Assembly: GCA_964576115.1 (NCBI GenBank)
Contig: CAZNUA010000028.1
Span: 1-46,007, forward strand
Direction: 5' to 3'
Source of the DNA: an uncultured Gemmatimonadota bacterium
GTDB lineage: Bacteria; Blakebacterota; Blakebacteria; Blakebacterales; Blakebacteraceae
DNA: 46,007 nt
Below the pieces are notes generated by a model. It was not told the DNA's origin and did no database searches. It saw nothing but the letters and a program-made list of their open reading frames with translations. The position numbers and the translations under genes are program-made. Shown one piece after another: positions 3,942-41,571 of this stretch (positions are counted from its first letter, which is position 1; each line of letters begins with the position of its first letter).

Positions 3942-5264
3942 TTACGTCAGGCGTTTCCTGACACTCTCGATCGCTTCGGTCAGGGCGGTATCGAGGGCTT
4001 CGCCCCGGGGCCCGCCCCCCGACGCGTACCCGGGTTTGCCCCCGCCCCCACCGCCCACGATCGCGGCCGCTTCGCCGAGCAGTGCCCCGGCATCCAGATC
4101 GAGACCGTCGCCGCGGGCGAAGAGCAGCCGGGCGGTGCCTTCCACCCCCGCCCCGAGCAGGGCCACGACGTCGTCGTGCCCGACCAGTTCGGTCGCCACG
4201 GCAGGCAGTGTTTCCGGGGGCAGGTCGTCGAGGCGGGCCACGATCACCCGGGCCGAGCCTATCTGCTCGGCGCCCCCGAGCAGAGCCGAGACGCGCAGGG
4301 GCACCAGCGCACGCTCGAGAGCGGCGATCTCGTGACGCAGATCGCGGTGCTGCTCCATGATATCGCTCACCCGGTCGGGAAAGTTCAGTGCCCCGGTGGT
4401 GAGAATCTCGCCCAGCTCGGCGGCGATGCGGTCCAGTTCGGTCAGCCGGCGGCGCAGGCGGATTCCGCAGAGAAAGGTGATGCGGAACAGGCCGTGGGCC
4501 CGGCTCGATCCCGAGGCCAGAACGTGGATGCCGCCGATACGGGCGGTGGAGGGCACGTGAGTACCCCCGCAGGGCACGGCATCGAAGGCGCCTATTTCGA
4601 CCAGGCGGATCCGACCGGTCGTCCCGTCCGGCGGCGGCCGCCGGGCCTGCCGGACGGCCTCGTCATCGGCTTCGACCAGGCGCACCGTGACCGGCAGGTC
4701 TTCATCCACCAGGGCATTGGCCCGGATCACCGCCTGAAGCAGGTCGGCCGGGGTGAGCTCGCGGGAAAGATCGATGGTGCTCTCTTCCTCCCCGAGGTGA
4801 AAGCCTTGTGTCCGAGCGCCCCAGGTGTCGAGTAGAACCCGGCTGAGCAGATGCTGGCCGGTGTGCTGCTGCATGATCTCCCAGCGTCGGGGCCAGTTGA
4901 TCGCCCCCTCGACCTTCTCCCCGACCGCGAGGGGGATATCGATATGGTGCACGATGACGCCGCGTTCGGATTGAACGTCGAACACTTCGGCTTCGCCGAG
5001 CCGGCCCTCGTCGGCGGGCTGCCCGCCCCCCTCGGGGTAAAAGGCGGTCCGGTCGAGCACCACGAGAGCCCCCTCCTGCGCCTCACGTACCTCGAGCACG
5101 ATTGCCTCGAAATCGGTCTGGAAGGGATCGTCCCAGAACAGGCGCTGGGTGCCCTCGCCGGTTTCTCCGGACACGTGTTCGTCTGAACCGTCCGGAATCC
5201 GCTCGCCGGAACCGCCCGGTATCTGCTCGCCGGAACCGCCCGGTATCCGCTCGCCGGAAGCCAT
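3942..5264 (-). CDS. Free-standing alanyl-tRNA editing protein (AlaX-L type, with C-terminal DHHA1)
   Basis: LDRTAFYPEGGGQPAD, HTGQH and CGGTH zinc motifs, GGGGGK DHHA1 tail. Confidence 0.88.
   Translation of the reverse strand: MASGERIPGGSGEQIPGGSGERIPDGSDEHVSGETGEGTQRLFWDDPFQTDFEAIVLEVREAQEGALVVLDRTAFYPEGGGQPADEGRLGEAEVFDVQSERGVIVHHIDIPLAVGEKVEGAINWPRRWEIMQQHTGQHLLSRVLLDTWGARTQGFHLGEEESTIDLSRELTPADLLQAVIRANALVDEDLPVTVRLVEADDEAVRQARRPPPDGTTGRIRLVEIGAFDAVPCGGTHVPSTARIGGIHVLASGSSRAHGLFRITFLCGIRLRRRLTELDRIAAELGEILTTGALNFPDRVSDIMEQHRDLRHEIAALERALVPLRVSALLGGAEQIGSARVIVARLDDLPPETLPAVATELVGHDDVVALLGAGVEGTARLLFARGDGLDLDAGALLGEAAAIVGGGGGGKPGYASGGGPRGEALDTALTEAIESVRKRLT
5183..5259. repeat. 24-bp in-frame tandem repeat, about 3 copies (SGERIPGG)
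   Basis: Unit ccggaaccgcccggtatcYgctcg; the protein begins SGERIPGG SGEQIPGG SGERIPDG. Confidence 0.85.
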
Positions 5265-13380: not shown

Positions 13381-14350
13381 CTCCGGTGCCGAGAGGAACG
13401 ACCAGACGCAATCGTACGCCGCCACCGACCCCGGCCCCGGAGGCGGGAAGCGCCTCGAGGTTGAGGAAGAACGTGCGGGTGTCGACCCGGCGGCGGGACA
13501 GCAGCAGGGTATCGATCAAATTGAAGACGTAGGCACCGACCAGCATCCGGCTGGCCCGCCGGCGGCGCTTCTCGGCCTCCTGCCGTTCCCGCTCGGCCCT
13601 GATGTTATGCCGCCGGGCCTCGCTCAGCTCGGCGTAAAAATCCTCCTCGGCACAGACCCGGCCGTCGATCAGAAAGAGATAATCGTTGGTGCCGAAGATT
13701 CGCTGAGCCTGGTAGCGTTCCCACTTGAGCCGATAATTGTCGGGGCTGGGGATGGCGGCCTGGTAGAGAAGCACGCCCGCCACCAGACCAGCGCTGAGGG
13801 CTGCATGAGCGTGATTGCCCTGCTGGAACTGCCCCAGACCGGGGATGAAAAGCGAATAAAAGAAGGGAGTGTCTGCGGGAGAATAGAAACGCGGGTGCGT
13901 CAGGTCCCGGGCCAGCTCCCGGGTGCCCGCCACGACGTCGCTCCGCTCCCAGGTGCCGAACCGGACCTCTCTGATCTCATCTTCGAGAGCGTTATAGAGC
14001 AGCAGGCTGATCTCGACGAACCCCGAATCGTTCCTGGCGGCGAGAGAGCCGATGATAAATCGGGCTCCGCTCGTTTCGGCGAACTCCTGGAGAGTAAGCC
14101 GTGAGTTCAGGATCTGACGGACCTGCCGCGATCCGAGTCTTTCTGCGGTCTCTTCCTTGTCGATGAGCAATTGCGTCGAGTAGACCCGTGTGCCCGTCCG
14201 GATTGCATCGTGGATGTCGGCCGTCAGGGTGGAATCCAGCCCTACCGCGAGGGGCGGCAGAACCATGATCCGGTCGGTTATCCTCTGGGCGGCGGTCGGA
14301 CGGACGGCGGAGAACAGGAGGAGCAGGACCGGCAGGAGAACCCGGTGCAT
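13301..14350 (-). CDS. Secreted/membrane hypothetical protein with a DUF5683-like motif
   Basis: Signal peptide; SLFIPGLGQF motif followed by hydrophobic helices; stop/start coupled to the upstream gene. Confidence 0.6.
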   Translation of the reverse strand: MHRVLLPVLLLLFSAVRPTAAQRITDRIMVLPPLAVGLDSTLTADIHDAIRTGTRVYSTQLLIDKEETAERLGSRQVRQILNSRLTLQEFAETSGARFIIGSLAARNDSGFVEISLLLYNALEDEIREVRFGTWERSDVVAGTRELARDLTHPRFYSPADTPFFYSLFIPGLGQFQQGNHAHAALSAGLVAGVLLYQAAIPSPDNYRLKWERYQAQRIFGTNDYLFLIDGRVCAEEDFYAELSEARRHNIRAERERQEAEKRRRRASRMLVGAYVFNLIDTLLLSRRRVDTRTFFLNLEALPASGAGVGGGVRLRLVVPLGTGVIGGSGIPPSRGFPPPGRPPADPSGK

Positions 14351-15552
14351 CAGTCATCCTCCCAGCAACCGTACCAGAGCCGGCCGGCCGAGCTGTAGAC
14401 ACTGACGTGGACCGCTCCGTCACCGTCGACCTGAAAGTCCCAGCGCCCGGCGGGATCAAGAGTGGTGATTGCAGTCCGTTTGTCCCACCGCGCCGACAAC
14501 TCGTTGTAGGTCGCCAGGATGAGGGCGCGATCACGCGCGTATAGAATCCAGAGTTTTCCCTCACTGTCGCGACGGAGCTGGACGAAAGCCTTCCGTACTT
14601 CGGAGTCGACCGGCCGGCCGAGGGCCAGGTCGACCAGGTTCCCGGCACCGTTGCGGAAGAGCACGTGCCGGCGATCGTTCGCGTCATAGCCCATCACGAG
14701 CGAGCGATGATAGAAATCGTCGCTCTTCAGTCCGGATAGAAGAGTGTTGCGGGTCCAGTTGCTTTCAGGCGTGAGGGCGGAGCGGTGCTCGATCTGCCAG
14801 CTGCTCGAACGCCACGATGACGACTTGGCGAAGGCTGCAATCTCAAGGTTGTTCGGCCCGCGACAGAAAGCGAAGGAGGCCCGGGAGGAGGTGAAGCTGA
14901 CACAGCCGACCCGTTCCCAATTCCCCAGACCGCCCCGCCAGTAATTCACCAAACTGCGTTCGGTGTTCATCTCCACGACAGAGAACCCGTCGGGGGTGGC
15001 GACCAGATAGGGATTCTCGCCCCCGCTGTGGAAGGTATCGAGCCGTTCGTACTGCCACGACTCGCCGTCGAAGCGGGCGTACCGGAGATCTTCGGGAAAG
15101 ATGTCCTTGTACGCCAGGTGCAGGGTGTCGCCGATACCGGCTTCGAGCGTTACTGCCTCGCCCTTCCAGCCGACGGTATCAATCGGCGTACTGAGCCACT
15201 GACCGGGAGCGGCCCGCCGGGCGTAGAAGAGACGCAGATGATAGGCGTCGTGATAGGCCAGGTGGACCGTACCGTCATCGGATACGGCCACGGCGGAGTG
15301 ATAGCCGAGCTCGTTTCCCATCGCAACGGGTTCGAGGCTCCAACCCGAACCGCGGGGATCGATCAGACCGTTGCCGCAGGCGCTCACCATCACCGCCAGG
15401 AGGATCGGCGCCCCAAGACGCCACGCTGCTGTTGTACGCCCGATGATCATTCGGTGGTGTCGTTTCTTCCGTTCTCCCGTTTCCCTGCCACTCCCGGATG
15501 CGGGGAGCACCCGGCGGGGACGACCGCCGCCCGTCGGAGACGAACTGTTCAT
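14350..15552 (-). CDS. Hypothetical lipoprotein with beta-propeller/BNR-like repeats (start may be 15450)
   Basis: Lipobox VSAC; repeated 'HLAY...L.YA' blades. Confidence 0.65.
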   Translation of the reverse strand: MNSSSPTGGGRPRRVLPASGSGRETGERKKRHHRMIIGRTTAAWRLGAPILLAVMVSACGNGLIDPRGSGWSLEPVAMGNELGYHSAVAVSDDGTVHLAYHDAYHLRLFYARRAAPGQWLSTPIDTVGWKGEAVTLEAGIGDTLHLAYKDIFPEDLRYARFDGESWQYERLDTFHSGGENPYLVATPDGFSVVEMNTERSLVNYWRGGLGNWERVGCVSFTSSRASFAFCRGPNNLEIAAFAKSSSWRSSSWQIEHRSALTPESNWTRNTLLSGLKSDDFYHRSLVMGYDANDRRHVLFRNGAGNLVDLALGRPVDSEVRKAFVQLRRDSEGKLWILYARDRALILATYNELSARWDKRTAITTLDPAGRWDFQVDGDGAVHVSVYSSAGRLWYGCWEDD

Positions 15553-15674
15553 CGCCCCCGAACCGGTTGAGCACTATATTCGCAGGCGTAGCGTTCTGCG
15601 GGTAGTACCGAATGACATCACCCATGCTTCAGGTCCGGAACGGGAAAAGCCGGAGCGGGAGAGGAACACCCGGC

Positions 15675-17051
15675 GTGGCATACGAGGGCACCTCCAGAGA
15701 ACTGCTGACCCGCTACGGTGTGGATGTCGGCTCGCGCATCATCCTCCGCACCGCCAAAGGTCCTTATGAGGGGATCGTCATGCCCCGGACCGAGCTGGGC
15801 GATTCGGAGCATATCGTCATGAAGCTCGTGAACGGCTACAACGTCGGGATCCGGATCGACGGGACCGAAACGATCGAGAGCCTGGCGGTGCATCAGGACG
15901 TCGGCACGTACAAGCACCGCACCCCCGTTCACGATCCATCCCGGCCCACTTTTTCGATCCTGCATACCGGCGGTACAATCGCTTCGCGGGTGGACTACAA
16001 AACCGGGGGGGTCGTGCCGGCTTTCACCCCCGAGGAAATCCTCGAGCTCTTCCCCGAGCTGGAACAGGTCGGCAACTTCCGCGCCCATCTGGTCTCGAAC
16101 ATGTTCTCGGAAGACATCGAGTACGAGCACATCGTCGCCCTGGGCCGGGGGATCGAAAACGAGATCGCCCGGGGCACACGAGGGATCGTCATCACCCACG
16201 GCACCGACACCATGCACATTTCCTCGGCCGCGCTCTCGTTCGTGGCCCAGAATCTGCCGGTACCGGCCATCTTCGTCGGTTCCCAGCGCTCGAGTGACCG
16301 CGGCTCGAGCGATGCCAAAATGAACCTGATGTGCGCCGCCCATTTCGCCACCGAGGCCGATTTCGCCGGGGTCGGACTCTGCATGCACGAATCGATGGAG
16401 GATGAAGCCTGCTTCATCCATGAGGGCACCAAGGTCAAGAAGATGCACTCTTCGCGGCGGGATAGCTTCCGCAGTATCAACCAGCATCCCTGGGCCCGGG
16501 CCTGGCCCGACGGCCGGGCCACGTTTATTCGCGAAGGGTACGCCCGTCGCGATCCCGGCCGCGAACCCTGTTTCTTCTTCGACTTCGAACCGAAGGTCGC
16601 TCTCGTCAAATCGTACTGCGGCATGCAGCCCGAGGTGATCCGCTTCTTCACCGAACGGGGGTACCGCGGGCTCGTACTCGAGGGCACCGGTCTGGGGCAC
16701 GTACCGGTCAACGAACTCGACGCCGATACCGCCCATCATCCCGACATCCTGCAGGCCCTGGCGGAGTTCATCGAGGCGGGGGGAACGGTGATGATGACCT
16801 CCGCTTCGCTCTTCGGCCGGATCAACATGAACGTCTACAGCACCGGCCGCTACCTGCAGAGCGCCGGCGTGATCCCGGGTGAGGACATGCTCAGCGAGGT
16901 TGCGGTGGTCAAGCTCAAGTGGGTTCTGGGACAGACCCGCGACCAGACCGAAGCCCGCGAGATGATGCTCACCTCATACGCCGGCGAGATCGCCGAGCGC
17001 ACCTCCTCGAACGTCTTCTATTACCAGTTCCCCGAGAGGAACGTGCGGTGA
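15675..17051 (+). CDS. gatD: Glu-tRNA(Gln) amidotransferase subunit D (archaeal type)
   Basis: GatD-specific N-terminal domain (YEGIVMPR...HIVMKLVNGYNVGI) plus asparaginase fold: TGGTIASRVDYKTG, HGTDTM, GSQRSSDRGSSDA, KKMHSSRRD, GTGLGH, NMNVYSTGR; GTG start after a purine-rich SD. Confidence 0.93.
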   Translation: MAYEGTSRELLTRYGVDVGSRIILRTAKGPYEGIVMPRTELGDSEHIVMKLVNGYNVGIRIDGTETIESLAVHQDVGTYKHRTPVHDPSRPTFSILHTGGTIASRVDYKTGGVVPAFTPEEILELFPELEQVGNFRAHLVSNMFSEDIEYEHIVALGRGIENEIARGTRGIVITHGTDTMHISSAALSFVAQNLPVPAIFVGSQRSSDRGSSDAKMNLMCAAHFATEADFAGVGLCMHESMEDEACFIHEGTKVKKMHSSRRDSFRSINQHPWARAWPDGRATFIREGYARRDPGREPCFFFDFEPKVALVKSYCGMQPEVIRFFTERGYRGLVLEGTGLGHVPVNELDADTAHHPDILQALAEFIEAGGTVMMTSASLFGRINMNVYSTGRYLQSAGVIPGEDMLSEVAVVKLKWVLGQTRDQTEAREMMLTSYAGEIAERTSSNVFYYQFPERNVR

Positions 17052-19009
17052 GTCCTGGCCGGCAGGACGAGTCCGAGACCGGTCCGGCCGGCAATACCGG
17101 CGGGGCGGCCGAACCCGGGTTCGAACCCCTGGACTGGCGCGAGATCGAGTTCCGGGGCGGGATCGAGATCCACCAGCAGATCGACACCCGCAAGCTGTTC
17201 TGCGAGTGCCAGCCGGCGATCCGCAAAGACACCCCCCACGAACGCACCCGGCGCAAGCTGCACGCGGTAGCCTCCGAACTCGGCGAGTACGACCCCGCCG
17301 CCCTGCACGAAGCCCACCGCGACCGGACCTTCTTCTACGAGAGTTACGAGGACAGCGTCTGCCTGGTCGAACTCGACGAGGAACCCCCCCACCCGGTCAA
17401 CCGCCGGGCCCTGGAAGTGGTTCTGCAGACCTCGCTGATGCTGGGGGCGCGGATCGTGGACGAAATCCAGGTCATGCGCAAGACGGTCATCGACGGCTCC
17501 AACACGGCGGGTTTCCAGCGCACCATGCTGGTGGCGACCGACGGGGTGATGCAGACCAGCGAGGGCGATGTCGTCCTGCAGTACTTCTGTCTGGAAGAAG
17601 ACGCAGCCCGCATCATCGAAACCGATGACCGCAGCGTGCGCTACCGGCTCGACCGGCTCGGCATCCCCCTGCTCGAGATCGTAACCGGTCCCGTTTTCGT
17701 TTCCCCCGTCCAGGCCGGCGAGGTGGCCGACCGGCTCGGCCACATCATCCGCAGTCTGCAGGTGCGCCGCGGCATCGGCAGCGTGCGCCAGGACGTCAAC
17801 GTTTCGACCCGCTACAGCGATCGGATCGAGATCAAGGGCGTCCAGAAACACCGCCTGATTCCGCTCATCATGTCCAACGAGGCCCGCCGTCAGAAGAGCC
17901 TGTGGGAGATCGGCCGCGAACTCACCGCCCGATGTTCCCCCCCCGGCCCCGACGACCTGCGCCGGCGCACCGCCACGGTGACCGACCTCTTCCGCACCAC
18001 CGAATGCCGGGCCCTGCGCCGCGTGATCGACCGCGGAGGCGAAGTCACGGCGATCGCCGTTCCCGGCCTGCGGGGCATGCCGAGCCGGCTGCTGTGCCCC
18101 AACATGCGTCTGGCCACCGAGTTCAAGGATCAGCTTCTGACGCTCGGCATCCGCGGGCTCCTGCACCGCGACGAGGACACCGCCGCCCGGGGAATCAGCA
18201 CCGCCGAACGGGAAGCTCTCGAGGCCCGCCTGGCGGCAGAGCCCGGGGATGCCTGGCTCATCTTCGCCTCCCGGCCCGAGGTCGTGCCGCTGGCCCTCGA
18301 CAAGTTGCGGGCCCGCATACCGGCCTGCTGGAAGGGTGTGCCGTGGGAATCGCGCCGCGCGATCGGGCGGGGCAACACCCAGTATATGCGCCCCCTGCCC
18401 GGTGAGGCCCGGATGTATCCCGAGACCGACATTCCCCCGGTGGTCATGACCCCGGAGAAGGTCGCCGAGACCCGGGCCGCCCTGCCCGAGATCCTGCAGG
18501 ACCGGATCACGCGCCTGAGCGAACGCAGCGGGATCTCGGCCTACGATCTCTGGAAGATCGAGGATTCGCTCGAACTGCTCTTCTTCGGGATCGATGAACT
18601 GAACCTGCCGGTGGGACTCCTCTTCAACTTCCTCGCCTCGCAGGTGGTGGATTTCCGGCGCCGGACCGGCCTGCGCCCCACTCCCGAGATCCTTTCCGAC
18701 CTGCTCGAGTCCGTCGCCACCGATCGCCTGCACCCCGAGGCCCTGCCCGAGGCCCTGGAACGAATGTGCGCCGGCGAAGCGCTCGAGACCATCGTCGCCG
18801 CTCTCGACCCGAACAAGCTCGACCTGGAGGCGGAGATTGCGCAGGTCATCGCGGCTCATGCCGACCTGACCGACAATCCGCACCGGCACCAGATCCTGAT
18901 GGGAGCCCTGATGGAAAACGTGCGCGGACGGATCGACGGCCGGCTGGCGGCTAAAGCCCTGGCTGAGGCCCTGGCCGGGATACCGGAACAATCACCACCG
19001 CGCTCATGA
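17048..19009 (+). CDS. gatE: Glu-tRNA(Gln) amidotransferase subunit E (archaeal type)
   Basis: GIEIHQQI, KLFC.C, CLVELDEEPPH, MRKTVIDGSNTAGFQRT, RLDRLGIPLLEI, RRGIGSVRQDVNVS, AspRS-like insertion domain, RPLPGEARMYPETDIPP; GTGA overlap with the gatD stop. Confidence 0.93.
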   Translation: MSPGRQDESETGPAGNTGGAAEPGFEPLDWREIEFRGGIEIHQQIDTRKLFCECQPAIRKDTPHERTRRKLHAVASELGEYDPAALHEAHRDRTFFYESYEDSVCLVELDEEPPHPVNRRALEVVLQTSLMLGARIVDEIQVMRKTVIDGSNTAGFQRTMLVATDGVMQTSEGDVVLQYFCLEEDAARIIETDDRSVRYRLDRLGIPLLEIVTGPVFVSPVQAGEVADRLGHIIRSLQVRRGIGSVRQDVNVSTRYSDRIEIKGVQKHRLIPLIMSNEARRQKSLWEIGRELTARCSPPGPDDLRRRTATVTDLFRTTECRALRRVIDRGGEVTAIAVPGLRGMPSRLLCPNMRLATEFKDQLLTLGIRGLLHRDEDTAARGISTAEREALEARLAAEPGDAWLIFASRPEVVPLALDKLRARIPACWKGVPWESRRAIGRGNTQYMRPLPGEARMYPETDIPPVVMTPEKVAETRAALPEILQDRITRLSERSGISAYDLWKIEDSLELLFFGIDELNLPVGLLFNFLASQVVDFRRRTGLRPTPEILSDLLESVATDRLHPEALPEALERMCAGEALETIVAALDPNKLDLEAEIAQVIAAHADLTDNPHRHQILMGALMENVRGRIDGRLAAKALAEALAGIPEQSPPRS

Positions 19010-20042
19010 CCTCACGCTGATATGTGCCTCCCACCGGCCGGTTGACGAGCCGACCGTTCACCACCAGGGTACTGCTCCCTCCCCCGTCGAGGTTCAGAGC
19101 CTCGACACAGCCGACCGCGTGCATCAGAGCTGCCAGTTCCTCGAGATCCACGCCCCGGCTGGCCGCCTGACGTCCGTCCACGACCATGAGCACCAGGTCA
19201 CCGTGGCGGGTGACGCCGGCGGCGGTCCGGGGATGAGTCTGAGGAATGGAAGAGGCGAAAAAGACCTCTTCGTCGACCGTGATATCGATCCGGCCGTCGC
19301 CGATGAGGGCCGGACCCGCCGCCAGAGCGTCGCCGACCGGCCAGGGGCGTGCCCGCGAGAAATCGGGGCGGGGAGCGGGCTGGTTCTCGCGATTCGCCGG
19401 CGGTCGGACAATCGTGAACAGACTGTCGTTACGGGTGACCGACCAGGCCACGTCGGGCCGTCCCGCAGGGGTGATCCCCAGGGCGGCCCGGGCCGTATAG
19501 TACCGTACCTCGCCCCGCCTGAGGGTTTCGAAGGCGGTCTCGATCATGCGCCCGTCGTCATAGAGCAGGCCGACATGCCGGGCGGGAACGAGATCCATGC
19601 GGAAATACCCGCCGTTGACGGCGACGACCGCTCCCAGCCGGGCGGCGAAATCGCCCACGCTTTCGCGGCCGTCTTCATCGGCGGAACCGACGATATCGAT
19701 CCGCAGTTCGGGGCCGGGGCGAACCCGGACGTACCAGGCGCGCAACGGCAGATCATCGTGTCGGGCGGCAAAGACCCGGATTGCCCGCGGCAACCCGGCA
19801 TTGATCTCTGCGACCGGTTCCCAGTCGAGCGCGAGCACCGTCCCGGAACGTTCCCGGCTGCAGGAGGACAGGAGCAGACCGAGGATCATGAGCAGACCGA
19901 GAGGTACGAGCAGACCGGGAGGCGCGAGCAGACCGGGAGGCATGAGCAGACCGGGAGGCGTCAGCGGACCTTGCGCCGCGATCGGGACGGTCGGAGCCGT
20001 CGCCCCCTCCCGGCAATCGCGGCGGCCCGACCCGCCGGTCAC
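18951..20042 (-). CDS. Phosphodiester glycosidase (NAGPA/DUF2233) family lipoprotein (start uncertain)
   Basis: AVNGGYF, HPRTAAG, VVDGRQ, ALNLDGGGSSTL; lipobox LSSC. Confidence 0.85.
   Translation of the reverse strand: MTGGSGRRDCREGATAPTVPIAAQGPLTPPGLLMPPGLLAPPGLLVPLGLLMILGLLLSSCSRERSGTVLALDWEPVAEINAGLPRAIRVFAARHDDLPLRAWYVRVRPGPELRIDIVGSADEDGRESVGDFAARLGAVVAVNGGYFRMDLVPARHVGLLYDDGRMIETAFETLRRGEVRYYTARAALGITPAGRPDVAWSVTRNDSLFTIVRPPANRENQPAPRPDFSRARPWPVGDALAAGPALIGDGRIDITVDEEVFFASSIPQTHPRTAAGVTRHGDLVLMVVDGRQAASRGVDLEELAALMHAVGCVEALNLDGGGSSTLVVNGRLVNRPVGGTYQREVMSAVVIVPVSRPGPQPGL
19873..19970. repeat. 18-bp in-frame tandem repeat, about 5 copies (xPPGLL)
   Basis: Units gagcagaccgRgaggNNN encoding TPPGLL MPPGLL APPGLL VPLGLL MILGLL. 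Confidence 0.9.
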
Positions 20043-20065
20043 ACCCTCTGCCGCTCGCGACCTTT

Positions 20066-20830
20066 TCAACCGGCCAGTCCTCCTCCGTCGACCACCAGAG
20101 TTGTTCCGGTCACCCAGGCGGACGATTCCGTGACGAGATAGAGAACCGCTGCAGCGACATCGTCGGGGGTTCCGGCCCGTCCGAGAGGCCGCCGGGCTGC
20201 GGCGGCGGTGAAATCGGCGACCGGCACTCCCAATTGACGCGCCTCTTCGGCGAGCATGCCGGTGTCGGTGTCGCCGGGACACACGCAGTTGACCCGTATC
20301 CCCTCGGGGCCGTGATCGATCGCCATGGCCCGGGTGAGCTGGACGACCCCACCTTTCGAGGCACAGTACGCCGCCGCCCGGGGACCCCCCACCAGCCCCC
20401 AGCCCGACGCGATATTCACGATCGCCCCGCCGCCGGCGGCCGCCATGACGGGAATCGCCTCACGACAGATGAGAAAAACCGATCGCAGGTTGACCGCCAG
20501 GCTCCGGTCCCATTCCTCCTCGCTGAGTTCGGTCACAGCCGCCCGGCGGATGATTCCGGCGTTGTTCACCACAATGTCGAGACCCCTGAACCGGGACACG
20601 ATGTCCTCGACGGCGGCCCGGCAATCCTCGGCCAGGGCGACGTCGGCTGTTACAGCGATGACTTCGTGCCCCGCATCGACCAGCGCCGCCGCCTCACGTT
20701 CGGCGGTCTCGCGGTCGATATCGACGACGGCCACGGAGGCTCCCTCACCCGCCAGGAGCCGGACGATCGCCCGGCCGATACCCGCCCCCGCCCCGGTAAC
20801 CAGAGCCCGCCTGCCGTCGAGCTGCCCCAT
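20066..20830 (-). CDS. SDR-family oxidoreductase
   Basis: TGAGAGIG, NNAG, YCASK, VNCVCPG. Confidence 0.93.
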   Translation of the reverse strand: MGQLDGRRALVTGAGAGIGRAIVRLLAGEGASVAVVDIDRETAEREAAALVDAGHEVIAVTADVALAEDCRAAVEDIVSRFRGLDIVVNNAGIIRRAAVTELSEEEWDRSLAVNLRSVFLICREAIPVMAAAGGGAIVNIASGWGLVGGPRAAAYCASKGGVVQLTRAMAIDHGPEGIRVNCVCPGDTDTGMLAEEARQLGVPVADFTAAAARRPLGRAGTPDDVAAAVLYLVTESSAWVTGTTLVVDGGGLAG

Positions 20831-25544: not shown

Positions 25545-25616
25545 AGGCTGGATGGATGTTGGATGCTGATCCGCAGACTAGTGCCGATCGTGTCCGGGGG
25601 CAAGGATGCCTTAAGG

Positions 25617-25651
25617 AAAAGCCCCCGCCCGGATTTTTCCGGACAGGGGCT
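25617..25651 (-). terminator. Rho-independent terminator after the 25678-26625 gene
   Basis: Minus strand AGCCCCTGTCCGGA-AAAA-TCCGGGCGGGGGCT followed by TTT. Confidence 0.7.
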
Positions 25652-25677
25652 CCTGTTATTGGCCTATGCGACGCGAT

Positions 25678-26625
25678 CTACCTGATCAGCGTCATCTTCT
25701 TCAGAATGCTGCCCTCGTTCGTCTCCAGGAGGTAGAGGTAGACCCCGGATGACACATCCTGACCACTCTCGTTCTTCCCATCCCAGGTCACCGTGTACCA
25801 GCCTGCCTGCTTCTCTTCGTCCACCAGCGTTCTGACTGTCTGGCCCCTGATGTTCATGATTCGCAGATTGACTCGAGAAGATATCGGCAATCCGTACCGA
25901 ACGGTTGTAGTCGGATTGAAGGGATTGGGGTAGTTCTGGTCGAGGGTTAGTTCTTTTGGAAGTGCGACAATGTTACTATAAGGATCAGAAACAGCAATGC
26001 CAATTTTCCAGGCAAGAAGAAAGTCGGCACCATAGGGCAATATTATTAGTTGTTCCTCATAAATATTACATCTTTCTAGTTCAACACATAACTCTGACAA
26101 TACAGCATTTATTGCATAATTTATATCATAGGTTGGTATTGTCATTTTAACAACAATATTATCATAACAATGGTTATTAATCATGTAAACACTGTTCATA
26201 CTGTTCATATGTGCTGATAATATTCCACCCTCTACTGGAATATTATTGTAGTATTGTTGGAATCTTATATGAATGCCATGTAGTTTATATATATTACATA
26301 TTCTTATGTCGTAATTAGTCTCCTTTACCTTTAGCATATTACGGTTTTCCGAAACAAATTGCCGTGCAACCATGACCGGATTACTAATCCTATAATTGAT
26401 TGGACTTCCATAAATATATCTCACACCACCTGTATCACTATCCCATCTTACCCTCCAATCAGGGTAATTAGCCTTGAACGCGTTCCAAGCAAATAATTGT
26501 TCTTCAACGACTTGTATTGATGGAGGTTCTGGAAACGATATTTGTCTTGTATGTTGCCCATTACATATGCTTGGAATTAGATTGAAGATAAATGCTGTAA
26601 CTATAAGTAATAATGACTTGTACAT
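25678..26625 (-). CDS. Secreted protein: M4/M36-type propeptide (FTP plus partial PepSY) fused to a FlgD-Ig/C-terminal sorting-like domain, with no catalytic domain
   Basis: Signal peptide, HIRFQQYYNNIPVEGG, LAWKI, then directly LDQNYPNPFNPTT...WDGKNESGQDVSSGVYLY. Confidence 0.7.
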   Translation of the reverse strand: MYKSLLLIVTAFIFNLIPSICNGQHTRQISFPEPPSIQVVEEQLFAWNAFKANYPDWRVRWDSDTGGVRYIYGSPINYRISNPVMVARQFVSENRNMLKVKETNYDIRICNIYKLHGIHIRFQQYYNNIPVEGGILSAHMNSMNSVYMINNHCYDNIVVKMTIPTYDINYAINAVLSELCVELERCNIYEEQLIILPYGADFLLAWKIGIAVSDPYSNIVALPKELTLDQNYPNPFNPTTTVRYGLPISSRVNLRIMNIRGQTVRTLVDEEKQAGWYTVTWDGKNESGQDVSSGVYLYLLETNEGSILKKMTLIR

Positions 26626-28025
26626 GACAGCACCTACTTGCTATGAAACTATTAACATTAGTATTCACTCATTATTGTGACACCAACATTACATTGAGTC
26701 AGCTTATTTCTGGGGTCTCCACTCGGAATCATAGTAGTTACCCTGCCCTCCAGCTATCTGATGCATATTTGTGCCATCTCTATTTATCACATACATATAT
26801 CCACCATGAAAATATGACCCAGCTATGAAAACAATTTTGCTTCCATCAGGAGACCAAGAAAGGTTTGTGATTACAATATCGTTGTTTGTAATATTCGTAA
26901 CATCGGAGCCGTCATAATTCATAAGATAAATATTAAACGTGTACTCATTTGTCTTTCCTATAAAGGCAAATTTATTGGCGCGCTCAGAATAACGATAAAA
27001 TGTGCCGATAAAAGTGCTGTCGCAATTTATAATAGAGCGCCTAGTGTGATTCGATAAATAATACTCATAACAATCAATGTATGTATCAAAAGAATGATCT
27101 GGTGAATACTCTGAACTCAGAATAATACTACTATCACACCAATCCCATGGTACGTTATAGTATGGATTGTCTGTTATTTGGACTTCCTGAAATCCCTCAG
27201 ATGTATCAATACTTGTAATGAATATATCGTATTTCAAAAGACCCCACTCCAATCCAAAACCCCTTTGAAATGCTATCTGTTTACTATCAGGAGACCAGAC
27301 AGGATGAGTTCCCCCATCAGGATGGGGCCCTAGAATCCCTTGATCCTCCTTGAGGGTAATGATTCGTTGGTTCTCTCCTTTATCATCTGCAATGAGAATT
27401 TGAGAGCACATACCATCAACACGCGAAAAAGCTATCAATTTTCCATCGGGAGACCAGCGAAGGGGTCCATGCCCATCGAGAATCTTGCGATGGTCCTTTG
27501 TTTGCATGTCATAGACCATAATCGCACTACCGACAACATAAGCTATCTCATCATGCTGTTCCTCTCGTTGGGATGAAACAAGACCACACGAACATGTGAG
27601 AGTAGCGTGTACAATTAGTGTGATACACAGTGTTGATTGATGCAATAAACCGAGTATGGTCTTTAGTGTATTCACGATATTTCTTCAACACAACAGCAGA
27701 CGCTTGAATGCTTCACGTTGTCGCAATGTTCTCGTCTTGAATTGCTGTTTCTTTAATAATCGGAACCGCGGGGCTTTTATGTATCCTAAAATCTTAAGCC
27801 CACTTCAGGCTGCGTTGAGTCTATATGGATAGTCTGTAGCCAGTCAAATATAAAATAGGGAGGAACCTATATGACACTTTCACCACAACAAGATTCTTTC
27901 CTCTGGTGATATCGCTACTGAAAATATAAATCTCCTTTATCCTCACCCCTCCTGGAACAGCACCGCCAGACGGGAGACCAGTTATGTCGTCACTTGTTCT
28001 GCTCTATAAAACCTCTTCATCCCTA
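25960..28025. other. AT-rich horizontally acquired islet
   Basis: Abrupt visual drop in GC and A/T-ending codons relative to the GC-rich flanks; no integrase or transposase seen. Confidence 0.8.
26704..27675 (-). CDS. TolB-like (PD40) beta-propeller protein, probable lipoprotein
   Basis: Repeated WSPDG..IAF motifs; N-terminal hydrophobic segment ending CSC. Confidence 0.8.
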   Translation of the reverse strand: MNTLKTILGLLHQSTLCITLIVHATLTCSCGLVSSQREEQHDEIAYVVGSAIMVYDMQTKDHRKILDGHGPLRWSPDGKLIAFSRVDGMCSQILIADDKGENQRIITLKEDQGILGPHPDGGTHPVWSPDSKQIAFQRGFGLEWGLLKYDIFITSIDTSEGFQEVQITDNPYYNVPWDWCDSSIILSSEYSPDHSFDTYIDCYEYYLSNHTRRSIINCDSTFIGTFYRYSERANKFAFIGKTNEYTFNIYLMNYDGSDVTNITNNDIVITNLSWSPDGSKIVFIAGSYFHGGYMYVINRDGTNMHQIAGGQGNYYDSEWRPQK

Positions 28026-38312: not shown

Positions 38313-38388
38313 TGGTGGAGATAACGGGGCTCGAACCCGTAACCTCCGGCATGCGAAGCCGGCGCTCTCCCAGTTGAGCTATATCCCC
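38313..38388 (-). tRNA. tRNA-Ala(CGC)
   Basis: GGGGATATAGCTCAACTGGGAGAGCGCCGGCTTCGCATGCCGGAGGTTACGGGTTCGAGCCCCGTTATCTCCACCA: cloverleaf, G3.U70, anticodon CGC, encoded CCA. Confidence 0.97.
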
Positions 38389-38514: not shown

Positions 38515-38572
38515 CGGGTAAGATAGGGCACGGGCAAGATGGGGCACGCGAAAGATGGGGAACGGGCAAGAT
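38515..38572. repeat. 16-bp intergenic tandem repeat, about 3.6 copies
   Basis: cgggtaagatagggca / cgggcaagatggggca / cgcgaaagatggggaa / cgggcaagat. Confidence 0.75.
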
Positions 38573-39213
38573 CAACGCAGAATCTTGAAGAAGCGGTTCC
38601 AGCGCAGGCGCCGCCAGAACGGCTTGTACTTCACGTGTTCCCACGAATAGAGCACGATCATGGCCTTGCCGAGGATGAGGTCGTCATCCAGAAAGCCCCA
38701 CGACCGGCTGTCGATCGAATCCTCCCGGTTGTCGCCCATGACCCAGAGCCGCCCTTCGGGCACCGTCACCGGCCCCATGTTGTCCCGTCGCGACATCTCG
38801 CCCGGCAGGATCCGCGGATCGGCATGCTGCCCCGTTTCGGGCAGCGGCATCACCTCGCCGTCGACGTAGACGACTTTATCCCTGATCTCAACCGTCTGGC
38901 CCGGCACCGCGATCACCCGCTTGACCAGCCGTCCCGACTCGACCGGGTGCCGGAAGATGATCACGTCCCCGGGGCGCGGCCGGCGCAGGGCGGGCAGCCG
39001 GACGTCGATCACGGGCAGCAGGATGCCGTAGAGGAACTTGTTCCCCAGCAGAGTGTCCCCGGTCATGATGGTGTTCTCCATCGAACCGGAGGGCACGTGA
39101 TACGCTTCGACGATCGTGATCCGCAGGACCAGCGTAATGACCACGACGATCATGAGGAACTTCGCGGTCTCGCGGGTTTTCGACGGCTTGCTCGCGGGCT
39201 GTTCCTGCGCCAT
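38572..39213 (-). CDS. lepB: Signal peptidase I
   Basis: VPSGSMENT (Ser), LVKRVIAVPG (Lys), MGDNREDSIDSR; only the C-terminal part of the 974-aa track ORF is the real gene. Confidence 0.93.
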   Translation of the reverse strand: MAQEQPASKPSKTRETAKFLMIVVVITLVLRITIVEAYHVPSGSMENTIMTGDTLLGNKFLYGILLPVIDVRLPALRRPRPGDVIIFRHPVESGRLVKRVIAVPGQTVEIRDKVVYVDGEVMPLPETGQHADPRILPGEMSRRDNMGPVTVPEGRLWVMGDNREDSIDSRSWGFLDDDLILGKAMIVLYSWEHVKYKPFWRRLRWNRFFKILR

Positions 39214-39372
39214 GCTGTTCTCCGTGGTGCTCGCACCGAACCTGACCGTTCCGGTCATTTGACGGCCGGGCATCGTCACAATATGTTGCACGGAACCCGA
39301 GAAGTCTAACCGCTGCTCGTGCGGCGGGTGCCGATGCCGGCTCAACCCCAGACGGGAGATGGCCCCCCGACC

Positions 39373-40854
39373 ATGAGACGACCGAGCCCCTCCACTCTGC
39401 TCGCCGCCGGTGCGATCCTGGCCGTGCTGCTGATCGCCACCGCCCCCCCCGCCACAAACGCCGCCGGCTCCGGAGTCCCGGAGACCGGATCCCGCACCGA
39501 AGCCGTCACGGCGGTGCAGACAGCCGGGGGGCAGAGCCAGTTGTCCGATTTCTCGGCCGCCACCGAACGGGGTGTGTTCTGGATGTATCTGGCCGCCTTC
39601 TTCGGCGGTATCCTGGCCAGCCTGACTCCCTGCGTGCTGCCGATCATCCCGCTCACGATCACCGTGATCGGGGCCCGGGCGGCGAAAAGCCGCGCCCGGG
39701 GGTTTTCGTTGAGCCTGGTCTACGTGCTCGGTATCGCCATGACCTATTCCGTCCTGGGAATCGTGGCAGCCACGACCGGCGCCCTGTTCGGCTCCCTGTT
39801 TCAGAGCACCCTGTTCCTGATCTTCGCCATCGCGCTTTTCACCCTGTTGGCTTTCGGACTCTTCGGGGCGTACGAACTGCAGCTTCCGGCCGGCCTCCGC
39901 AACAAGCTGATGGCCAGACAGGGCCAGGGGTTTTTCGGCGTCTTCATCATGGGGCTGATCGCCGGCCTGGTCGCAAGTCCCTGTGTGGGACCCATCATCG
40001 TCGGTATCCTGGCCTTCATCGCCGCCACGCAGAACGTGGTCTTCGGTTTCACCCTGCTCTTCACCTTCTCGGTCGGGATGGGTGTTCTCTTCGTTGTCGT
40101 CGGTACCTTTTCGAGTGAAATCCAGCGACTGCCCTCGGGTACCTGGATGGTGGCGATCGAGTACCTCATGGGCACGGCCATGCTGGCGGTCGCCTTCTAC
40201 TACCTCTCGATCCTGCTCGGCACATTCCCCTTCGTCCTCACCCTGGGCGCCGCCCTGGTGATTGCGGGAGTATTCGTCGGGGCTTTCCTGCGTCCCGATC
40301 CCGACACCCCCGGTCCCTGGCAGAAACTGCGTCAGGCCTTCGGCGTGCTTCTGGTGGCGCTCGGCCTCTACTTCTTCGTCGGGGGTTTGTTGACCTTCGG
40401 ACTCATCCTTCCGCCGCTCTCGGCGCCTGGATCGGCAGGCGGCGGGGCCGCAAGTGCGGCTGTACTCGAGGGACCGGCCTCGGCCGAAGCCGGCGTGACG
40501 TGGAGCGACGACCTCGAAGCGGCCCTGGTCCTGGCCGGGATCGAAGGAAAACCGGTCATGATCGACTTCACCGCCGACTGGTGCGCGGCGTGCAAGGAAC
40601 TCGATCACCGTACGTTTTCGGACCCGGCCGTGGTCGAGGCCTTCAGCGATTTCATCCTGGTACGGATCGATATGACAGACAATACGGATCCCCGCAACCA
40701 GGAGTACACAGCCCGCTACGAGATCTTCGGTCTGCCCAGTGTCACCTTCCTGACCCCGCAGGGAGAGATGCTGCAAGAGCACACCGTGACCGGCTTCGTG
40801 CGGGCCCCGGAATTCCTTGATATTCTCGGTCGAGTCCGGGAAGCTGCGAAATAG
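39373..40854 (+). CDS. dsbD: DsbD-like protein-disulfide reductase (TM plus thioredoxin domains)
   Basis: SLTPCVLP and ASPCVGP TM cysteines; DFTADWCAACK. Confidence 0.85.
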   Translation: MRRPSPSTLLAAGAILAVLLIATAPPATNAAGSGVPETGSRTEAVTAVQTAGGQSQLSDFSAATERGVFWMYLAAFFGGILASLTPCVLPIIPLTITVIGARAAKSRARGFSLSLVYVLGIAMTYSVLGIVAATTGALFGSLFQSTLFLIFAIALFTLLAFGLFGAYELQLPAGLRNKLMARQGQGFFGVFIMGLIAGLVASPCVGPIIVGILAFIAATQNVVFGFTLLFTFSVGMGVLFVVVGTFSSEIQRLPSGTWMVAIEYLMGTAMLAVAFYYLSILLGTFPFVLTLGAALVIAGVFVGAFLRPDPDTPGPWQKLRQAFGVLLVALGLYFFVGGLLTFGLILPPLSAPGSAGGGAASAAVLEGPASAEAGVTWSDDLEAALVLAGIEGKPVMIDFTADWCAACKELDHRTFSDPAVVEAFSDFILVRIDMTDNTDPRNQEYTARYEIFGLPSVTFLTPQGEMLQEHTVTGFVRAPEFLDILGRVREAAK

Positions 40855-40971
40855 TGCCCACTGTACAAAACGGACCGGCATCGTCGATGCGGCAAAGAAC
40901 CCCTTCGAGGTGTGAACAGGCCTCGAGCCACATCCGTTGATCTCTGTGGAGAGTGATAGGACGCGCGGCAG

Positions 40972-41571
40972 GTGACGAAGGCGCCAGAACAGATCGGTGA
41001 AGCCCTTCCGGCCACCTATGATGAGCTGGTGCGTGAGTACGGCAAGCGCGTCCTCGCGATCGCCTACGACTACGTCAAGGACTACGACGCGGCACAGGAT
41101 GTGGCGCAGGAGGTGTTCATCAGGGTCTGGCAGAAAGGTGACGAATTCCAGGCCCGCGCGAGTGTTTTCTCCTGGATCTACAGGATCACCGTGAACCTGG
41201 CGATCGATTTCCTCCGCAAGCAAAAAAGCCGGGGGAAGCTCGCGGACAAAGAGGGGGACTACATCGGCACCTACCGGGCCGAACAGGAAACGGGCTCGAC
41301 CGTGACGGCTCCCGGAACCGAGATGGAACGCTCTTCGGTTCGGGAACGGATCGATACCAGTCTCGAGATCCTCTCCGAACACCAGAAACAGGCTTTCATC
41401 CTGCGCTACTATCAGGAGATGCCGATCGACGAGATCGCAGCCATCATGGGGTGCCGGGAGAGTACGGTGCGACAGCACCTGTTCCGGGCGACCCACAAAC
41501 TGCAGGACGAACTAGGTGACCTGGCCGAACGCTTCGGGATCCGACGCGCCGGCGAGGACGAGAACGGTTGA
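40972..41571 (+). CDS. ECF sigma-70 factor
   Basis: AQDVAQEVFIRVW, SWIYRITVNLAID, region 4 EIAAIMGCRESTVRQHLFRA. Confidence 0.92.
   Translation: MTKAPEQIGEALPATYDELVREYGKRVLAIAYDYVKDYDAAQDVAQEVFIRVWQKGDEFQARASVFSWIYRITVNLAIDFLRKQKSRGKLADKEGDYIGTYRAEQETGSTVTAPGTEMERSSVRERIDTSLEILSEHQKQAFILRYYQEMPIDEIAAIMGCRESTVRQHLFRATHKLQDELGDLAERFGIRRAGEDENG

Follow-up and report, generated by a model that had tools for sequence, protein, structure and literature searches.

Passages of reviews published from 2008 to 2022 present the two-subunit amidotransferase GatDE as found only in archaea (PMC2330236, PMC2811023, PMC8007984, PMC9499178), an exclusivity that they attribute to co-evolution with a tRNA-Gln carrying an A1-U72 first pair and with the archaeal GluRS. 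In the parts of the literature available to us, archaeal GatDE is described as reading the A1-U72 pair and the D-loop of tRNA-Gln, and as binding the archaeal non-discriminating GluRS (ND-GluRS) via the insertion domain of GatE (PMC2330236, PMC2943598, PMC9499178), while bacterial GatCAB is described as reading U1-A72 (PMC2811023). Here we analyse an archaeal-type gatDE operon in a bacterial metagenome-assembled genome (MAG) of an uncultured Gemmatimonadota bacterium from sediment. The MAG comprises 144 contigs and 3.96 Mb (completeness 93.7%, contamination 0.04%), and the window, i.e., the whole stretch of DNA analysed, is its entire contig C28 of 46,007 b. Our joint best explanation, which we consider likely, is that this would be an intact operon of archaeal derivation in a bacterium, serving as a back-up Glu-tRNA(Gln) amidotransferase beside GlnRS and GatCAB.

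The enzyme family is well known and the bacterial proteins are already annotated: NCBI names GatD/GatE in MAGs whose labels include KSB1, Zixibacteriota, Gemmatimonadota, Planctomycetota, Brocadiia, Edwardsbacteria and Coatesbacteria. A first-pass annotation of this DNA had called GatDE an archaeal signature, as do passages of three of the reviews (PMC2330236, PMC2811023, PMC9499178), and its caveat that bacterial gatDE annotations might exist was apt. We found no description of bacterial GatDE in the searchable literature (subscription papers and supplements lay outside the search, and GatDE papers since 2016 were judged by title and the start of the abstract), and there is none in passages of PMC9499178, PMC8007984 and PMC13047044.

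The window holds a true, intact archaeal-type GatDE operon, whose features are listed in Table 1. The longest gatD open reading frame (ORF) in the ORF list spans 15612-17051, but the start is most likely the GTG at 15675, because the product then lines up with M. thermautotrophicus GatD (2d6f_A, 396 bits) from the first residue of both, GGGAGAGG lies 10 nt upstream, and entry P0413 of the protein collection is exactly this 458-aa product. GatD scores 482.8 bits on NCBIfam TIGR02153 (equivalog cut-off 324) and 354 bits on the type I asparaginase subfamily model, while the asparaginase equivalogs fall short of their cut-offs (120.5 bits vs 376 and 84.2 bits vs 506). Pfam GatD_N matches residues 38-90 of the long ORF (59.1 bits, cut-off 25.7), and the asparaginase N and C domains are matched too. 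The catalytic motifs TGGT, HGTDT and KKMHSSRRD are all present in the translation, and the TGGT Thr, the HGTDT Thr-Asp and the KKMHSSRRD Lys are identical to both solved GatD proteins (2d6f_A and 1zq1_A alignments). Part of PMC2330236 describes GatD catalysis as relying on a Thr nucleophile and a Thr-Lys-Asp triad.

GatE passes both of its NCBIfam models (NF003107, 582.3 bits, cut-off 456; TIGR00134, 490.4 bits, cut-off 319.55), whereas on GatB models it scores 108-127 bits against cut-offs of 315-338 (best 127.4 vs 338). It aligns with P. abyssi GatE (1zq1_C) at 385 bits over residues 28-640, and the 653-aa product from 17048 is exactly protein collection entry P0003. The AspRS-like insertion matches Pfam GAD at residues 325-414 (28.5 bits, cut-off 23.4), with a weak AspRS match at 308-425, and the alignment continues through this region in P. 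abyssi GatE. The YqeY-like tail is barely over the Pfam GatB_Yqey cut-off (27.9 vs 27 bits, residues 543-642), and it aligns with archaeal GatE. The motif RPLPGEARMYPETD is present with residues identical in P. abyssi GatE, and the window protein has the conserved blocks HQQ, DEEPP, VIDGSN..GFQRT, CLEEDAARI, RQDVNVS, IEIKGVQ and MRPLPG.ARMYPETDIPP.

The two genes share a GTGA overlap, read directly from the sequence, through which they are predicted to be translationally coupled. Downstream, the 3' end of a convergent NAGPA-domain gene overlaps gatE by 59 nt, and G001, a genome of the same genus, also has this gene 3' of its gatE, at 71% identity. A scan of 15300-19400 for promoters and terminators gave 0 promoter-like sites and 3 terminator-like sites vs 1.9 expected. 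Both gatD and gatE are under purifying selection (dN/dS against G001 of 0.10 and 0.25, with flanking genes at 0.20-0.33); identity to G001 is 88% for GatD and 76% for GatE. The conserved domains and catalytic residues, the gene coupling and the purifying selection thus argue for a working GatDE with the known chemistry. The first-pass annotation had described a complete archaeal-type operon, with a GatD-specific N-terminal domain, intact TGGT, HGTDT and K.MHSSRRD motifs, an AspRS-like insertion that GatB lacks, the RPLPG.ARMYPETD block and a GTGA overlap, and all of this stood; in the model comparison that it had called for, the proteins fit GatE and GatD models better than GatB or asparaginase ones. 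Its label of "lipoprotein" for the convergent bacterial gene overlapping gatE is reasonable given the lipobox-like LLLSSC and the NAGPA domain.

Archaeal GatDE as solved from M. thermautotrophicus (2D6F, with tRNA-Gln) and P. abyssi (1ZQ1) resembles the window operon in its subunits, domain order, catalytic motifs and adjacent genes, and the window proteins score 371-396 bits against the solved chains over nearly their full length. The setting differs: the window operon sits in a bacterium whose tRNA-Gln begins with the pair U1-A72 rather than A1-U72 and whose GluRS is bacterial, not the ND-GluRS that is described, in parts of PMC2330236 and PMC2943598, as binding the GatE insertion. Moreover, archaea lack GlnRS, whereas the window host has it, so GatDE is not its only route. 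GatCAB catalyses the same overall reaction, and its GatB is a GatE paralogue that shares the cradle and the YqeY-like tail. However, its glutaminase is the amidase GatA, whereas the window's GatD is of asparaginase type, and GatCAB needs GatC and is without the AspRS-like insertion. A further comparison is with Deinococcus, Thermus and Bdellovibrio, which according to part of PMC4206432 keep an amidotransferase beside GlnRS and AsnRS. They likewise combine direct and indirect aminoacylation in one cell, but their extra enzyme is GatCAB and is explained by tRNA-dependent asparagine synthesis, while the window host has asparagine synthetase B (AsnB) and its extra enzyme is GatDE.

The host genome encodes GlnRS (C81, 730.3 bits, cut-off 425.8), adjacent GatA and GatB (C52, 509 and 460 bits), an ORF that weakly resembles GatC (40.5 bits, under the cut-off of 47.1), AsnRS (458 bits) and AsnB (442 bits). 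Its single GluRS is bacterial (543.9 bits, cut-off 290), and no archaeal GluRS was found in the host genome over the archaeal model cut-off, the best match (352.6 bits) being the GlnRS gene. To see these genes in context, one can turn to a survey of 401 bacterial genomes around the host, with GatE called at E <= 1e-60; its sampling scheme is unstated, so its counts give no prevalence for all Bacteria. GatE occurs in 44 of these genomes (43 above the family cut-off): 13 have both GatB and GlnRS, 7 GatB without GlnRS, 21 GlnRS without GatB, and 3 neither (drafts, 83-100% complete). Because GatB and/or GlnRS co-occur with GatE in 41 of the 44, GatDE is almost never the sole route in GatE-bearing bacteria.

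Both host tRNA-Gln genes (CUG on C36, UUG on C42) carry U1-A72 and G73, the bacterial identity set, and neither has the A1-U72 pair of archaeal tRNA-Gln. The same holds more widely, with U1-A72 in all 8 tRNA-Gln genes of six GatDE-bearing bacteria (2 from the host and 6 from five others). Host tRNA-Glu has a D-loop of 8 nt vs 7 nt in tRNA-Gln, and its first pair is G1-C72. The gltX gene adjoins tRNA-Gln(CUG) and tRNA-Glu(CUC), and a tRNA-Gln/tRNA-Glu pair is also adjacent in genomes G007 and G073. The host ARAGORN set numbers 47 tRNA genes, including tRNA-SeC and an odd 95-nt "tRNA-Asp(AUC)" call; ARAGORN found no tRNA-Asn or tRNA-Lys in the host MAG, gaps that probably reflect MAG incompleteness.

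We propose that an ancestor of the host's order would have acquired the operon from an archaeon, with vertical inheritance thereafter. GatD would free ammonia from Gln or Asn, and GatE would bind Glu-tRNA(Gln), phosphorylate its gamma-carboxyl with ATP and amidate it to Gln-tRNA(Gln). The sole substrate available in the host would be a bacterial-type tRNA-Gln (U1-A72, G73) charged by the host's one GluRS, a bacterial enzyme, and with only this U1-A72 tRNA-Gln on offer, the enzyme would therefore have to accept U1-A72 or read the first pair loosely. It might still separate tRNA-Gln from tRNA-Glu by the D-loop and by a weak vs a G-C first pair; such discrimination could, we infer, still work because the D-loops differ (7 vs 8 nt) and tRNA-Glu begins with G1-C72. 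GatDE would then be an additional or back-up Glu-amidotransferase alongside GlnRS and GatCAB, not a substitute, and a back-up would pay off in a cell whose bacterial GluRS mischarges tRNA-Gln. In the GluRS of T. thermophilus, Arg358 is the residue that makes the enzyme discriminating. To our knowledge, GatDE is known only as a Glu-specific amidotransferase. We regard it as probable that the window's GatDE is a Glu-tRNA(Gln) amidotransferase adapted to bacterial tRNA-Gln and providing a second or back-up route, its substrate in the host being a predicted one.

Several observations weigh against this picture. The enzyme looks redundant: with GlnRS, GatA/GatB, AsnRS and AsnB all in the host, nothing in the genome demands a Glu-amidotransferase. 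Unlike the published partners of GatDE, neither the tRNA-Gln nor the GluRS of the host is of archaeal type. GatE evolves faster than GatD (see the identities to G001 above), which would also suit a change of substrate. As for the archaeal origin, only a handful of MAG proteins with NCBI labels stand behind the choice of donor, most neighbouring sequences being unlabelled, and the trees come from quick searches in which archaeal sequences were chosen for similarity to the query.

The alternative that best survives, though we think it unlikely, is a new use in bacteria, with the kinase/amidotransferase chemistry kept and another substrate or role taken on. Possible candidates are a suppressor-like or other special tRNA, Asp-tRNA(Asn), a non-translational aminoacyl-tRNA-dependent pathway, or a regulatory or quality-control role. 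The redundancy with GlnRS and/or GatCAB in 41 of 44 genomes would suit such a use, as would the lack of A1-U72 and of an archaeal GluRS in the host, the faster divergence of GatE, and the presence, in three genomes of one family (members of clade B, the second of two groups of bacterial GatE described below), of a gene for tRNA(UUA) immediately upstream of gatE. However, all catalytic and tRNA-binding domains are retained, with scores over the equivalog cut-offs, and no conserved neighbour points to a secondary-metabolite pathway. There are no tRNA genes in 8 loci of clade A, the group to which the window's operon belongs, and the window's only tRNA gene is a tRNA-Ala at 38.3 kb. An Asn role was considered and rejected as unneeded, because AsnRS is present in 12 of 14 genomes searched (10 of the 11 GatE-bearing ones) and AsnB in the host.

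The first-pass annotation had also suggested that GatDE may have replaced the bacterial route, so that it would be the cell's way to Gln-tRNA(Gln), and had named glnS, gatCAB, asnS and the GluRS type as the genes to look for. This suggestion failed: glnS, gatA, gatB, asnS and AsnB are all present in the same genome on bin-consistent contigs, and the GluRS is bacterial. Elsewhere, 8 of the first 11 GatE-bearing genomes examined, and 24 of 44 overall, yielded no GatB, and neither GatB nor GlnRS was found in G001 (83% complete), G178 (98%) and G268 (100%), which would favour replacement. Yet GlnRS is present in 21 of the 24 GatB-less genomes, the three genomes with neither are drafts, and G331 and G110, family-mates of G178 and G268, have GlnRS. 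Replacement is thus improbable.

Turning to the origin of the back-up enzyme, the closest GatE sequences, at 57-77% identity, belong to bacterial MAGs and to a single-cell genome, with the labels KSB1, "bacterium" and Gemmatimonadota; among the closest GatD sequences (72-87% identity), the label Zixibacteriota occurs too. Past this closest set, identity falls to <=45% for GatE and <=64% for GatD, and all further labels are archaeal: Altiarchaeota, Bathyarchaeota, Hadarchaeales, Methanofastidiosa and Thermoproteales for GatE, and Micrarchaeota, Undinarchaeota, Aenigmarchaeota and Helarchaeota for GatD. The trees were quick searches, with archaeal rows picked by similarity to the query or clade A. 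In the GatE tree, rooted with 5 real bacterial GatB sequences, a 40-row group (97) that includes all 14 archaeon-labelled rows encloses clade A (13 rows, SH-aLRT 100). The GatD tree puts clade A (11 rows, 100) within a 20-row group (98) that also has two rows labelled Micrarchaeota, and the nearest GatD sequences with a label are Micrarchaeota. Outside clade A, the nearest GatD and GatE sequences have matching sizes of their longest contigs (91065, 14593, 42131 and 11893) and thus probably sit together on the same contigs, and the two subunits therefore tell one story. The donor of clade A was probably DPANN- or Micrarchaeota-like, judging by these neighbours.

Within the genome set used, GatE is present in 7 of the 10 species of the host's small candidate phylum, spread over three families, and the 3 genomes without it, with a completeness of 63-90%, all come from a single genus. 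The operon also matches the host in composition: GC content at third codon positions (GC3) is 0.83 for gatD and 0.86 for gatE vs a genome mean of 0.744, at the upper end of the genome's range, and its tetranucleotide make-up is at the 42nd percentile among genome chunks of equal size. These results would fit an archaea-to-bacteria transfer of the operon, old and ameliorated, followed by vertical descent under selection. The first-pass annotation had proposed such a transfer and noted the host's GC-rich codon style; the composition bears out the codon style, and the transfer is supported by the phylogeny, which placed clade A within archaeal sequences for both subunits.

Could clade A instead be the original GatDE of bacteria, handed down since their last ancestor, or the universal one, with no transfer? 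A published hypothesis puts GatDE in LUCA (last universal common ancestor; Sheppard and Soll 2008, as cited in the part of PMC9499178 available to us), and a deep clade B does exist in bacteria. However, in a 220-row GatE FastTree, to which 140 cluster representatives had been added, clade A sits 12 nodes deep within a group of archaeon-labelled and unlabelled sequences, separate from clade B. Its GatE is 38-45% identical to matches from the archaeal group vs 29-35% to clade B and occupies just one 50%-identity cluster, and a single clade for all bacterial GatE is rejected (approximately unbiased (AU) test, p = 0.009, for a grouping named after the tree was seen). An ancestral origin of clade A is therefore very improbable.

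A transfer into a bacterium presupposes that C28 is bacterial and non-chimeric, and it is. It carries bacteria-type genes (a sigma-54-dependent response regulator, a histidine kinase, a protein with the Por_Secre_tail domain of the type IX secretion system (T9SS), an S26 signal peptidase (signal-peptidase-I) domain and WYL/PafC-type regulators), and a partial 16S gene on C50 fits the bacterial small-subunit model best. The two immediate upstream neighbours of gatD have no Pfam family, and a protein atlas links them to CsgG/LpoB/DUF5683-like and BNR beta-propeller envelope proteins of FCB-group bacteria, as leads only. Gene order is shared on both sides: an M28 peptidase, a 349-aa gene, a 400-aa gene and gatD are in the same order in G001 and on a named MAG contig (L024), and the order gatE, NAGPA gene and short-chain dehydrogenase/reductase (SDR) recurs in G001. 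Logan contigs from 4 public runs in 3 studies cover window 14000-20500 at even depth, and both operon junctions are bridged by a contig from X3 (17,761 b, spanning 14000-20500) and one from X4 (12,037 b, spanning 14000-20062); 3 of the 4 runs may be the sample of origin, and X4 is not marked as such. The samples with this sequence are from sediment and seawater, and there was no RNA run among those listed for 14000-20500. C28 is ordinary in tetranucleotide make-up for the genome, and the contigs with glnS, gatAB, asnS, gltX and 16S are consistent with the bin.

An artefact, i.e., an archaeal contig misbinned into a bacterial MAG or a chimeric archaeal/bacterial assembly, might be suspected given 144 contigs and archaeal nearest labelled relatives outside clade A for both proteins, but it is hardly credible given the bacteria-confined gene types on C28, the synteny of both junctions in other assemblies, the bridging contigs at even depth from separate runs, the bin-typical composition, and relatives at 57% GatE identity on a 62-kb contig (L026) of a single-cell genome labelled KSB1. 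The first-pass claim that the contig is not chimeric is thus borne out, including by the coverage over both flanks that it had asked for.

The archaeal-derived operon of clade A is not the only GatDE in bacteria, where the enzyme is no rarity. Outside the host phylum, GatE occurs in 37 of the 391 surveyed genomes, including three closed genomes, and in 0 of 10 bacterial control genomes. All 26 of these 37 GatE genes that were examined, and thereby included in the trees, belong to clade B (35 rows), which is monophyletic and branches outside the group of archaea and clade A in both the GatE tree and the 220-row FastTree. As similarity to clade A governed the choice of archaeal rows, clade B may have a hidden archaeal relative. 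Its NCBI labels include Planctomycetota, Brocadiia, Gemmatimonadota, KSB1, Oleimicrobiaceae, Edwardsbacteria, Coatesbacteria and Clostridiales. Like the window's proteins, both clade-B subunits are over the GatE/GatD cut-offs, and the bacterial hosts mostly have GlnRS. In contrast to the window, the gene order is E then D, a precomputed GAD (PF02938) match is rare (3 of the 120 clade-B matches listed), and identity to the window proteins is 29-35% for GatE and 39-46% for GatD. One clade-B GatE (P0178) is labelled "Thermoplasmata archaeon" by NCBI, has a longest contig of 5.16 Mb and groups with bacterial sequences; it may be mislabelled or a genuine archaeal member of clade B.

Three clade-B genomes, all of a single family (G367, G217 and G049), contain GatB and yielded no GlnRS; their tRNA(UUA) gene upstream of gatE is 75 nt long, lies on the same strand as gatE and scores 43.8-52.5 bits on the Rfam tRNA model (cut-off 29). 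One copy has a tRNA-Gln-like acceptor stem (U1-A72, G73) and two begin with A1, while every copy has a pyrimidine at position 37. This tRNA beside gatE in GlnRS-less genomes hints at GatDE serving a special tRNA. Recoding of UAA was considered for these genomes and rejected, as the standard code gives 86-92% ORF coverage over 16.6-19.9 kb per locus; TAA terminates 1 of 13, 6 of 17 and 3 of 14 long ORFs at the three loci, and there is no sign of genome-wide TAA reassignment in the 16.6-19.9 kb around each. The closed clade-B genome G376 has an ordinary tRNA-Gln(CUG) with U1-A72 about 1.2 kb upstream of gatE.

Three other regions of C28 are of separate interest. A low-GC island (overlapping windows at 0.38-0.53 GC vs ~0.64 elsewhere) looks like a recent foreign insertion, and of its two genes, one has FlgD_ig, a thermolysin-propeptide motif and T9SS Por_Secre_tail, and the other PD40/WD40-like repeats. 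A 440-aa protein with an AlaRS editing-domain fragment, tRNA_SAD and DHHA1 is predicted to be an AlaX-type free-standing trans-editing factor, which would make its gene the second tRNA quality-control gene on C28. Finally, an unusually long ORF of 974 aa has a C-terminal signal peptidase I (S26) domain as its sole Pfam match (residues 775-949), and a tRNA-Ala(CGC) lies just downstream of it.

Table 1. Locations of the operon, its neighbours and the other features discussed; positions without a prefix are in the window (C28)
Feature	Location	Strand	Remarks
Shine-Dalgarno-like GGGAGAGG	15657..15664	+	10 nt 5' of gatD start; consensus resemblance, putative
gatD, glutaminase/asparaginase subunit	15675..17051	+	458 aa from GTG 15675; GatD_N, type I asparaginase N and C domains
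GTGA overlap	17048..17051	+	gatE start GTG / gatD stop TGA; direct sequence reading
gatE, tRNA-dependent kinase/amidotransferase subunit	17048..19009	+	653 aa; GatB_N cradle, AspRS-like GAD insertion, YqeY-like tail
Convergent NAGPA-domain gene	18951..20282	-	context, outside operon; stop 18951; lipobox-like LLLSSC; true start probably internal
AlaX-type gene (predicted)	3942-5264	-	440 aa
Low-GC island	25600-28000		
ORF with FlgD_ig and Por_Secre_tail	25678-26625	-	in low-GC island
ORF with PD40/WD40-like repeats	26704-27675	-	in low-GC island
tRNA-Ala(CGC)	38313-38388		
ORF with S26 domain	38572-41496	-	974 aa
gltX	C36:19709-21502		
"tRNA-Asp(AUC)"	C9:72194-72288		ARAGORN call
tRNA(UUA) upstream of gatE	L050:1306-1380	+	G367 locus; ARAGORN "tRNA-Stop"
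tRNA(UUA) upstream of gatE	L052:3505-3579	-	G217 locus; ARAGORN "tRNA-Stop"
tRNA(UUA) upstream of gatE	L053:3548-3622	-	G049 locus; ARAGORN "tRNA-Stop"
tRNA-Gln(CUG) upstream of gatE	L061:232-303	+	G376

Taken further, clades A and B raise the possibility, which we put forward tentatively and hold to be doubtful as yet, that GatDE is no archaeal signature at all and instead occurs in two or more bacterial lineages: the archaeal-derived clade A, and a much larger, deeper clade B outside all sampled archaeal GatE, in FCB/PVC-type phyla and usually beside GlnRS. If this is true, either GatDE would go far back in Bacteria, with consequences for the question whether both amidotransferases were present in LUCA, or bacterial GatDE would fill a role beyond those of GlnRS and GatCAB.

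For the window's own operon, a conserved, selected GatDE amid bacterial tRNA-Gln, GluRS and GlnRS makes the co-evolution argument directly testable. It raises the question of why many bacteria retain a Glu-amidotransferase beside GlnRS, and of how GatDE handles a U1-A72 tRNA-Gln. The answer bears on translational fidelity, on the evolution of indirect aminoacylation and on the amidotransferases of the earliest cells.

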